64,000 nucleotides of DNA from Perna viridis (Eukaryota), in NCBI GenBank assembly GCA_037379345.1, contig CM074519.1, positions 36,792,103 to 36,856,102 on the forward strand, read 5' to 3'. The notes under the pieces were generated by a model. That model was not told the origin of the DNA and did not search any database. It saw only the letters and a list, made by a program, of their open reading frames with translations. Below are positions 39,901 to 42,610 of this stretch, in pieces. Made by a program: the position numbers and the translations under genes. Every line of letters begins with the position of its first letter. The first letter of the stretch is position 1.

Positions 39901-42610
39901 AGGTGGGTAGGGTCGGGCAATTTAGCCTCCTGTGGCGGAGCCCTATGGTTCCTACTCCGGGAGAACACCACAGTATGGTTCTTTAACGTGCGAGGAACGT
40001 GGCATCGTTCCCAACACGATGCACCACTATGGTTTGCGGTCAGGTTTTCCGTATTATAGCCTGACAACCCCAGCATGTAACACGCCAGGGGTACCCCATT
40101 CCACCACCTGGGGCACACATCCCAGTTGCTCTGTGGGCAGGTCGCCCTAGCCCCCGCTAGGGTTCTGAGCACTATTTAGTCGCCTTTTACGACAAGCTTA
40201 GCGCTTCTGCAGGCCTATTCTTTTAACACCCGAACCTGCACGGGGCGGGGTTAGTACTGAAACTTTAGATTCCGATAAATACACTTTTATAACAACATTA
40301 TTTCGAAGAAGTCCAATTGCCATGGTACCATCCCATGGTAACGTTTCAAAAAATAACTTCATTAAAATTTCAATTCAATTGTTGGAATGGGAAAATGAGC
40401 TAGCCAGGAGACAAGGAAATCCCATCAGAATACAGCATACATTAAATGGAAATGGTGAACATAAAGTACCAAGAACAAATTATCGCTTGGATGGTTTTAC
40501 GACACAAGGACACAAAAATATTGTATACGAATTTCTAGATGCGTACACATATATATTTTTTTTTCTGTTGAAATAAAACATTCCTTTTGATATTCAGATA
40601 TTGAATATTTTTTAAGTTTGCATCCTCTTACTTGAAGTTATAAAATAAATAAATAACCACATACACATGTAGAATCCGCGTGTTTTTTTTCTGATTATTT
40701 TTTCCAGCACCTTTGAGCTGGTCCCGATACGCGTGCATCGGCGGCGGCGCGATAAAAAATATATGATTTTTTCTCTTTAAATAATTTATGCTCTCCCTCC
40801 AACCACCACCTCCCCTTCCCCAAATAAATACATATTTTCTTTTTGTTTCAGGGTGCCGTTTCCATGGATTCCCTACTTGTTTTCCTCACGACAGAAAAAC
40901 TACTACCGACCCACTCACGAGTAATTCTCTAAACGAATTATACTGTTTGACGAAAAGCAGGGAACATGAACTGAAACATCGAGGATGTGAATACGTGTGC
41001 ATAGGGGAACCCGAATTTCGGGAACGACTCCAAAACAACGACGAGATGAAAGCCTATGTGTCTGGAATAGACGTGACTGATCGATTGAACCCTAGGATGC
41101 ATTTTTGGTGGTAGAAGCAATGCATTCAAACTATACCACGAATGTACATAACCAGGGGAAATGATCGAATACTTTGATTTTACAAGGTAAAAAATAATTA
41201 CACAAACATACAGAGAGAGAGAGAGAGAGAGAGAGAATATTCTAGTCTTGTGGGCAATTGTTAATTTAAAGCGTACACAGTGTAATTTTTTTTTTTTATA
41301 TATATATAAACAGTTCTCTATCAATCCTAATTGTAAAATTGTAATTTTATATTATTTGTTTCTTCAGTTTGTATCCAAGTGTTAATAAATACGCAAAATA
41401 TCCTGTGGGACATCCTGAATTCATCACATCGAATTTCGGCGATCTTTTTCAGTATTTTGGTACAGCAAAGGTGAAAATAATTCCATCGAGACAATTGCTA
41501 CATCCAGTGCTACCTTATCACTCGAACGGTAAATTGAAATTCCCTCTTTGTAAAACGTGTGCAGATGCAGAAAATCAGAACGAGTGTTCCTGTCATGACG
41601 AAAGGCGAGCTTTCTCCGGAACTTGGTGTACACCAGAATTGGAACTTGCAAAAGCTAAAGGATATAGAATACTAAAAATATATGAAATATACCATTTTCC
41701 CGAAAGTCAAATGTACGATAAAAGTACGAGAAAGGGAGGTTTGTTTGCTGGTTATGTAAATTTGTTTTTGAAGTTAAAGCAAGAGGCTTCAGGGTTTCCA
41801 TCCGAATGTCAATCAGAAGACCTGAAGATGAAATATATAGCCGATTACGCCAACAATGAGAGAATCAATCTAAAATATGATAATATAAAACGAAATCCTG
41901 GACTGCGTAGTTTAGCAAAGATTTGTTTGAATAGCTTTTGGGGAAAATTTGCCCAACGGCTAAACATGAAATCCAGTTCATTTTTGTATGAGAGCGAAGT
42001 AAGCAATTTTTTTCAATTAAAATCCGATCCCAAAAAAGACGTAAGAGACTTCCATATTGTTAGTGAAAACATAATACAGACCGAACATTTAAATAGTCCC
42101 ACTTTTGAGAACATAGATTTTAAAACTAATGTATTTATTGCCTCTTTCACAAGATGTTGGGCGAGAATTCAACTTTATGATTTACTTGAAAGAACTGGAA
42201 AAAATGCTCTCTATGTGGATACCGATTCTATTATATTTTCAGACAGGAATAAGGAAATTACAAAAACATTACCTATTGGTAACTATTTAGGCCAACTGAC
42301 AAACGAAATTTCTCCTAGTGATAGTTATATCACACACTTTGTGTCAGGGGGTCCGAATAATTACGCTTTTAAATTGTTATCGGGAAAGGAAGTGTGTAAA
42401 GTCAGAGGTTTCTCATTAAAAAGTAGAGTGAATGAAGAAATTATCAATTTTTCAGCAATTCGCAGTGTTGTGGTGGAAAGAAACAATGATCCAATTAAAA
42501 AAAAATTACAAGAATTGCAAGCAAACGGAAATTATGTAACAAATCAGAGACAAAAGAGTACAAAATGACGGCTTTTGAAAGACTTTGAAACTTTACCGTT
42601 TGTTATGTGT
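37000..42610 (+). pseudogene. polB: Protein-primed family B DNA polymerase (pPolB) with introns 40539-40851 and 41187-41367, and a SINE insertion
   Basis: N-terminal C2H2 (CPYC..H..H) and QTGSG. Exo motifs YFETTQ, IAHNAKGFD, LDSLNF, YCVSDVDIL, SIASAC. VSR-like YEFL|GCRFHG. Pol motifs FDFT(S)|LYPS, KICLNSFWGKF, YVDTDS, KVRGF. Many stops and frameshifts. Confidence 0.95.
39730..40247 (-). mobile_element. SINE-like retroposon, copy 2, inserted in pPolB
   Basis: 13-bp TSD gggttagtactga (39717-39729 / 40248-40260); (CAAA)n tail. Confidence 0.93.

Follow-up and report, generated by a model that had tools for sequence, protein, structure and literature searches.

Probable spliceosomal introns, shared in position among bivalve Maverick elements, in a protein-primed DNA polymerase gene

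The gene that encodes the DNA polymerase of a Maverick (Polinton) element in the bivalve Perna viridis is broken by two intervals, one of them inside catalytic motif A. Are these introns that the element lineage inherits, or insertions into a dead copy? The earlier note on this stretch of 64,000 nucleotides (hereafter the window) had called them spliceosomal introns and set them against the usual description of Maverick core genes as uninterrupted. That description is indeed found in the accessible text of three sources (PMC8097293, 10.1101/2022.07.12.499685 and PMC10120064). In the part of PMC8097293 available to us, intact vertebrate Mavericks are defined by intronless ORFs, 'no introns were observed' and large insertions are scored as decay. 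Surveys of endogenous DNA viruses make the same assumption of no introns (PMC10120064, in its accessible portion, and 10.1101/2025.04.19.649669).

The window element is a decayed Maverick/Polinton of 20.8 kb with an internal deletion (33742..54562, ends ACTACT...AGTAGT). It is flanked by the 6-bp target duplication TACTGC (33736-33741 and 54563-54568) and bounded by a left terminal inverted repeat of ∼2.9 kb (33742..36661, plus strand) and a right one of ∼2.5 kb (52063..54562, minus strand), the two largest blocks of the left arm being 90-91% identical to the right arm. The protein-primed polymerase B gene lies on the plus strand. Its first exon (37412..40538) covers the N-terminal part, the exonuclease and the start of a Vsr-like insert, the middle exon (40852..41186) the remainder of that insert up to the DFT of motif A, and the last exon (41368..42568) the polymerase domain, including motifs B and C (PF03175, E 8.5e-21). 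The nearest named relatives are Mytilus proteins, 67-71% identical.

Alignment to a 1468-aa Mytilus gene model divides the gene, from ∼37.4 kb onwards, into 11 pieces in shifting frames. The first exon, disrupted by frameshifts, stops and a SINE, accounts for eight pieces against residues 2-929 of P0121 (a Mytilus gene model); the middle exon has one frameshift and one stop, and the last reads open for 399 codons, with a stop earlier than in relatives. The SINE-like repeat (39730..40247, minus strand) arrived after integration, has a 13-bp target duplication and occurs in three copies in the window, a second one being at 43798..44305 (minus strand). Judged from its sequence, the window copy is a pseudogene, a dead relic in which the donor of the first intron has decayed. 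The earlier note had placed the polymerase at 40322..42568; the intervals that it described are confirmed, but the gene starts outside that span, near 37.4 kb, and its pseudogene state, with several frameshifts, stops and the SINE, had been overlooked.

Downstream lie a packaging ATPase gene in two frames (42733..43262, minus strand; E 1e-43 against a related element's ATPase, itself a match to Pox_A32 at E 4e-4, under the curated cut-off) and a LINE-like retrotransposon within the element (44800..49730, plus strand, ends approximate; RVT_1, E 3.7e-37). Pieces of an accessory gene with a Thr-rich stretch, a transmembrane segment and GT/AG-like ends follow at 50700..51527 (minus strand; E 5e-8 to a related element); a Thr-rich membrane accessory gene in pieces with such ends also occurs at L029:4701-6837. 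An element-wide comparison found no integrase, capsid or protease match in the window copy. By eye, the flanks of the element resemble a split retrotransposon pol gene. Elsewhere, window positions 1-15000 hold a ∼7.6 kb tandem duplication (96-99% identical) and, at 13723-13894, a run of N, and a 395-codon ORF at 62814-63998 starts with what we take to be a Cys-rich B-box-like pattern.

Both intervals lie exactly where they were first placed, and the reading frames rejoin across them as YEFLGCRFHG and DFTSLYPS. Intron 1 (40539..40851, plus strand, 313 nt, phase 1) interrupts the glycine codon of YEFxGCxxHG, in the Vsr-like insert, after its first base, with YEFL plus one base upstream and two bases, then CRFHG, downstream. 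It begins ATGCGT and ends TTTCAG, and is therefore AT..AG in the window copy. Intron 2 (41187..41367, plus strand, 181 nt, GT..AG, phase 2) splits the motif A serine codon of the polymerase behind its second base, with YFDFT plus two bases upstream and one base, then LYPS, downstream; its first letters are GTAAAA and its last TTCTTCAG. Each interval is AT-rich and contains stops in all three frames, and the 17 positions ahead of the AGs hold 13 and 14 pyrimidines in the two intervals. A branch-point-like CTAAT is present within the motif A interval. The U2 donor, tract and acceptor signals are complete in intron 2, and intron 1 departs from them in its AT donor.

Target duplications or matches to transposon families would, according to the earlier note, have marked the intervals as later inserts; neither was found. 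No target duplication extends beyond the shared AG at either interval, no terminal inverted repeat is present, and a genome-wide repeat-family search (common words skipped) returned the interval itself and one paralogue in one case and only itself in the other. A covariance search for Rfam group I and II introns in six loci gave zero matches.

The genome was searched for further copies (64 protein matches, of which 30 were retrieved, and 23 DNA matches). Site 1 is GT..AG in 7/9 own-genome copies with both ends visible (114-352 nt), and site 2 in 5/6 (102-406 nt). The interruption always falls at the identical base, in copies down to 64% amino-acid identity. Non-GT donors are limited to AT in the window copy (site 1), AT in L047 (site 2) and TT in L048. 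A decayed GT had been suspected at 40539, and the closest copy, ∼90% identical, does have GT at the homologous position. Intron sequences are alike only between close relatives, so that position and phase stay constant while sequence and length drift. The expectation that paralogues would share the intron positions is thereby confirmed within this genome, and because unrelated, AT-rich GT..AG sequence breaks the same base in the same phase, the intervals stand above chance. Three own-genome copies have site 1 only, and neither site is interrupted in L053, L057, L058 and L059; the apparent interval in L057, where motif A is intact, proved to be a SINE further downstream and was left out of the counts.

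These copies belong to mobile elements. Distinct 6-bp target duplications were found in 4/4 intron-bearing elements with both ends read, and the ends read ACTAC[A/T]//[A/T]GTAGT in the same proportion (window, 33742-33747 and 54557-54562; L028/L029; L074/L076; L031/L032); three related elements likewise have inverted repeats and a target duplication. Related elements carry integrase, capsid-like, protease-like and ATPase genes. The integrase of one intron-bearing relative combines rve with a chromodomain, and an ORF of 444 aa is similar to DJR-like clusters (0.99; 30% of members bear the family). Two further ORFs, without Pfam match, are presumably the minor capsid and the protease, labels that we take from position and familiar motifs. 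Across 16 loci, the integrase, capsid, protease and ATPase genes are free of intron-sized gaps, showing frameshifts in some copies and a few SINE-sized inserts. Two related Mavericks have an accessory gene in which a CARD is fused to PC4-like domains (L029:2286-3200 and L035:2613-3554) and which may bear on caspase or immune signalling of the host. Long inverted duplications including integrase and capsid genes were seen in L039/L040, L074/L076 and L085/L086.

The label 'VSR-like' for the insert also stands, because a profile built from 44 intronless relatives matches E. coli Vsr (1cw0, E 7.8e-4) and the model of the insert, again from relatives (pLDDT 90.7), has Vsr as its best fold match (prob 1.00, TM 0.54, E 0.012), with the homing endonuclease I-Bth0305I as a weaker one. 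In these relatives, the Vsr-like domain sits between the exonuclease and motif A. Pfam gave no Vsr match for the insert, only weak RAP and MTES_1575; a structure-atlas search of the insert returned unnamed clusters alone, and the full polymerase model had no match in a sequence search of the PDB.

The same sites are occupied in other datasets. We examined 95 outside loci, 80 of them the best among 380 metagenome matches and 15 from genome bins. Site 2 is present in 7 of them (7/7 GT..AG), site 1 also in 7 (5/5 GT..AG where both ends are visible, two being cut by contig ends), and one or both sites in 11. Pattern matching had flagged 15 loci at site 2, of which 8 were misses without insertion, and 10 at site 1, of which 3 were; 9 loci were unscorable at site 2 and 17 at site 1. 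A gap scan (26/95) revealed five further GT..AG positions, all in one clade, at P0121 residues 608, 792, 864, 1230 and ∼1349, which we take to be in the exonuclease region, in motif B and after motif C. This distant clade (L100, L101, L113, L115 and L136) thus has up to seven polymerase intron positions; each of the seven falls where the sequence is conserved, G or AG preceding the donor. The loci L172-L186 are Maverick polymerases in contigs filed as bacterial genome bins, likely host contamination. In protein sets, motif A is where 9/69 scorable short matches begin, intron-like residues occurring in several of these, and a Mytilus gene model is the sole one of 120 long relatives above 60% identity. 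Scans of viral contigs and a first metagenome scan gave no relative.

The last exon was compared over 185 codons in nine intron-bearing pairs (pS 0.50-0.83, pN 0.07-0.26), and on these substitution rates the exons are under purifying selection. A functional polymerase has thus been kept while silent sites became saturated in lineages that share the introns, which implies that the interval is removed during expression; the low pN relative to pS, together with the elements' own 6-bp target duplications, indicates that the introns travelled with functional elements. In three raw RNA runs, of which 19-25% each was read, essentially no depth and no junction were found at the polymerase exons of the decayed copy, and thousands of reads fell on the window SINE, from its other copies. 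The mapping concerned the window copy, paralogues at ∼65% DNA identity being too distant to map, and the silence of that copy is expected because it is dead.

We estimate a probability of roughly 0.88 that the intervals are ordinary major-spliceosome introns in a bivalve Maverick (polintovirus) polymerase, copied along with the elements, the polymerase being made after host splicing. One competing account has dead copies acquiring them after integration, as introners, indels or small transposons that were never spliced. The window copy did acquire a SINE and a LINE and is without RNA support, and the accessible text of PMC11957031 describes introners entering dinoflagellate Polinton-like elements after integration. 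Yet copies elsewhere on the chromosomes, and those of other datasets, are hit at the same base and phase, the ends are GT..AG, there is neither target duplication nor repeat family, unlike the SINE 300 nt upstream, and the exons are under purifying selection; the insertion account is largely refuted already, its chance being practically nil. Self-splicing introns, homing via the Vsr-like nuclease, or excision at the DNA level would suit intervals in highly conserved motifs, where mobile introns are found, and the fold of the insert, that of Vsr and more weakly of I-Bth0305I; group I introns are moreover described for cryptophyte Polinton-like viruses in the part of PMC12220804 available. All of these we judge very unlikely, given intervals of 88-406 nt that are AT-rich and unrelated in sequence, with polypyrimidine-AG ends, the zero group I/II matches in six loci and the presence of the nuclease in intronless relatives too. 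Domesticated transposon genes typically have introns, and this, with the gene models in Mytilus, counts for a host gene of Maverick polymerase origin. Such an origin is extremely unlikely, since the elements around the copies have inverted repeats, a viral gene set and 6-bp duplications of their own, many copies are decayed and more than one locus is concerned.

If the intervals are introns, their distribution may reflect old origin and loss, or repeated gain. Introns were mapped on trees built from the last exon and from the sequence lying between site 1 and site 2 (quick searches, with SH-aLRT as the support). The intron-bearing own-genome copies form one clade with Mytilus gene models (SH-aLRT 100; protein models). 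Both trees contain three intron-bearing groups with intronless lineages between them: the own-genome and Mytilus-model clade, a site-1-only group beside oyster proteins, and the distant group with up to seven positions. Grouping all intron-bearing rows as one clade was rejected (AU p=2.8e-5), as was one clade of site 2 bearers alone (p∼6e-148), so a single origin requires many losses; at minimum, site 1 calls for 4 changes and site 2 for 3. These results speak for true introns gained independently several times, at stable proto-splice sites in conserved motif codons or as a favoured host-dependent polymerase switch, as do the close branching of intronless L112, L127, L172 and L173 to the third group and the G or AG ahead of the donor at seven positions in conserved stretches. 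L101 and L104, which differ in site 1 despite 93% identity downstream of it, would point the same way, but their identity drops to 79% upstream, which makes a recombination break near site 1 likely. Against repeated gain, exact base and phase agree at two sites in groups only ∼50% identical, for which independent uniform gain has a rough probability, calculated after the fact, of 6e-5. We regard repeated gain as unlikely, though worth keeping in view.

Uniform gain being so improbable, the favoured account is one of old introns, cleanly and repeatedly lost, with some recombination. Each site probably had one origin, at an early stage of the mollusc VSR-type polymerases, followed by several clean losses, an order of events to which we lean without great firmness. 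The losses would likely have come about when spliced RNA was reverse-transcribed or when elements residing together recombined. For the own-genome site-1-only copies, a test did not separate loss of site 2 from its original absence (AU p=0.40), and the motif A serine codons of 35 intronless copies (AGY 19, TCN 16) fit both histories.

With host-spliced introns in the polymerase gene, the elements would carry both introns along when copying themselves. Host RNA polymerase II would transcribe the gene, the host nucleus would splice the transcript, and active members would then make polymerase; unspliced RNA would terminate before or inside motif A. The window copy would be a dead relic of such a lineage, its first donor decayed. 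The earlier note had proposed a lineage that depends on host splicing: the shared sites bear out that the Maverick lineage inherits spliceosomal-type introns, while the splicing itself is what we infer, with the spliceosome read as the remover from the interval ends and the lack of group I/II matches. A related protein-primed polymerase, that of adenovirus early region 2, is expressed via host nuclear splicing, by which a long ORF receives leaders and a short first exon while the catalytic motifs stay uncut. It is conceivable, if rather improbable, that splicing acts as a host-controlled licence, with introns repeatedly gained or kept at catalytic-motif codons and absent from other core genes, polymerase being made only where and when the nucleus splices.

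Comparison with described systems, each limited to the text available, places the lineage among known Mavericks. Like vertebrate Mavericks (PMC8097293), it has inverted repeats, a 6-bp duplication and polymerase and ATPase genes, with integrase, capsid-like and protease-like genes in the related elements; the vertebrate end motifs are (AGT)2//(ACT)2 or (AG)3//(CT)3 and those of the window lineage the reverse of (AGT)2//(ACT)2. The pPolB2 Polintons of molluscs and marine nematodes (Jeong et al., 10.1101/2023.08.22.554363) have the same pPolB with a Vsr-like insert before motif A, likewise mollusc hosts, inverted repeats and a viral gene set; in the accessible text, introns are mentioned for the group I origin of an HNH domain and spliceosomal introns of the polymerase are not. 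In nematodes, Mavericks that carry cargo (Widen et al., 10.1101/2022.07.12.499685) have intron-bearing accessory genes near the inverted repeat, as here, but their core genes are stated to be intronless, whereas here the polymerase is split. The introners that Gozashti and Corbett-Detig (PMC11957031) describe from Maverick-Polinton-like elements of dinoflagellates are also spliceosomal-type introns in integrated dsDNA viral elements; they form young repeat families that mostly entered after integration, and the present introns are old, unrelated in sequence, shared in position and in an animal. A literature search, with the founding papers, Repbase and supplements outside it, found no account of spliceosomal introns in animal Maverick polymerases, and an intron-split polymerase in these elements is apparently unpublished.

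The polymerase departs from the printed definition of intronless core ORFs, to which the other core genes conform. That the lineage would be missed by ORF-based mining was an overstatement: as integrase, capsid, protease and ATPase genes are uninterrupted, and public protein sets give the last exon as a 400-aa ORF, what suffers is the polymerase, truncated or scored as degraded, and the element itself is not missed. Since surveys assume no introns and count insertions as decay, intron-bearing lineages would be assigned truncated polymerases or fossil status. Introns in the replicase would tie the elements to nuclear transcription and argue against expression in the cytoplasm with the aid of a helper virus, and the seven positions, with presence and absence between close relatives, may offer a compact system in which to follow how a mobile, virus-like genome gains and loses introns.
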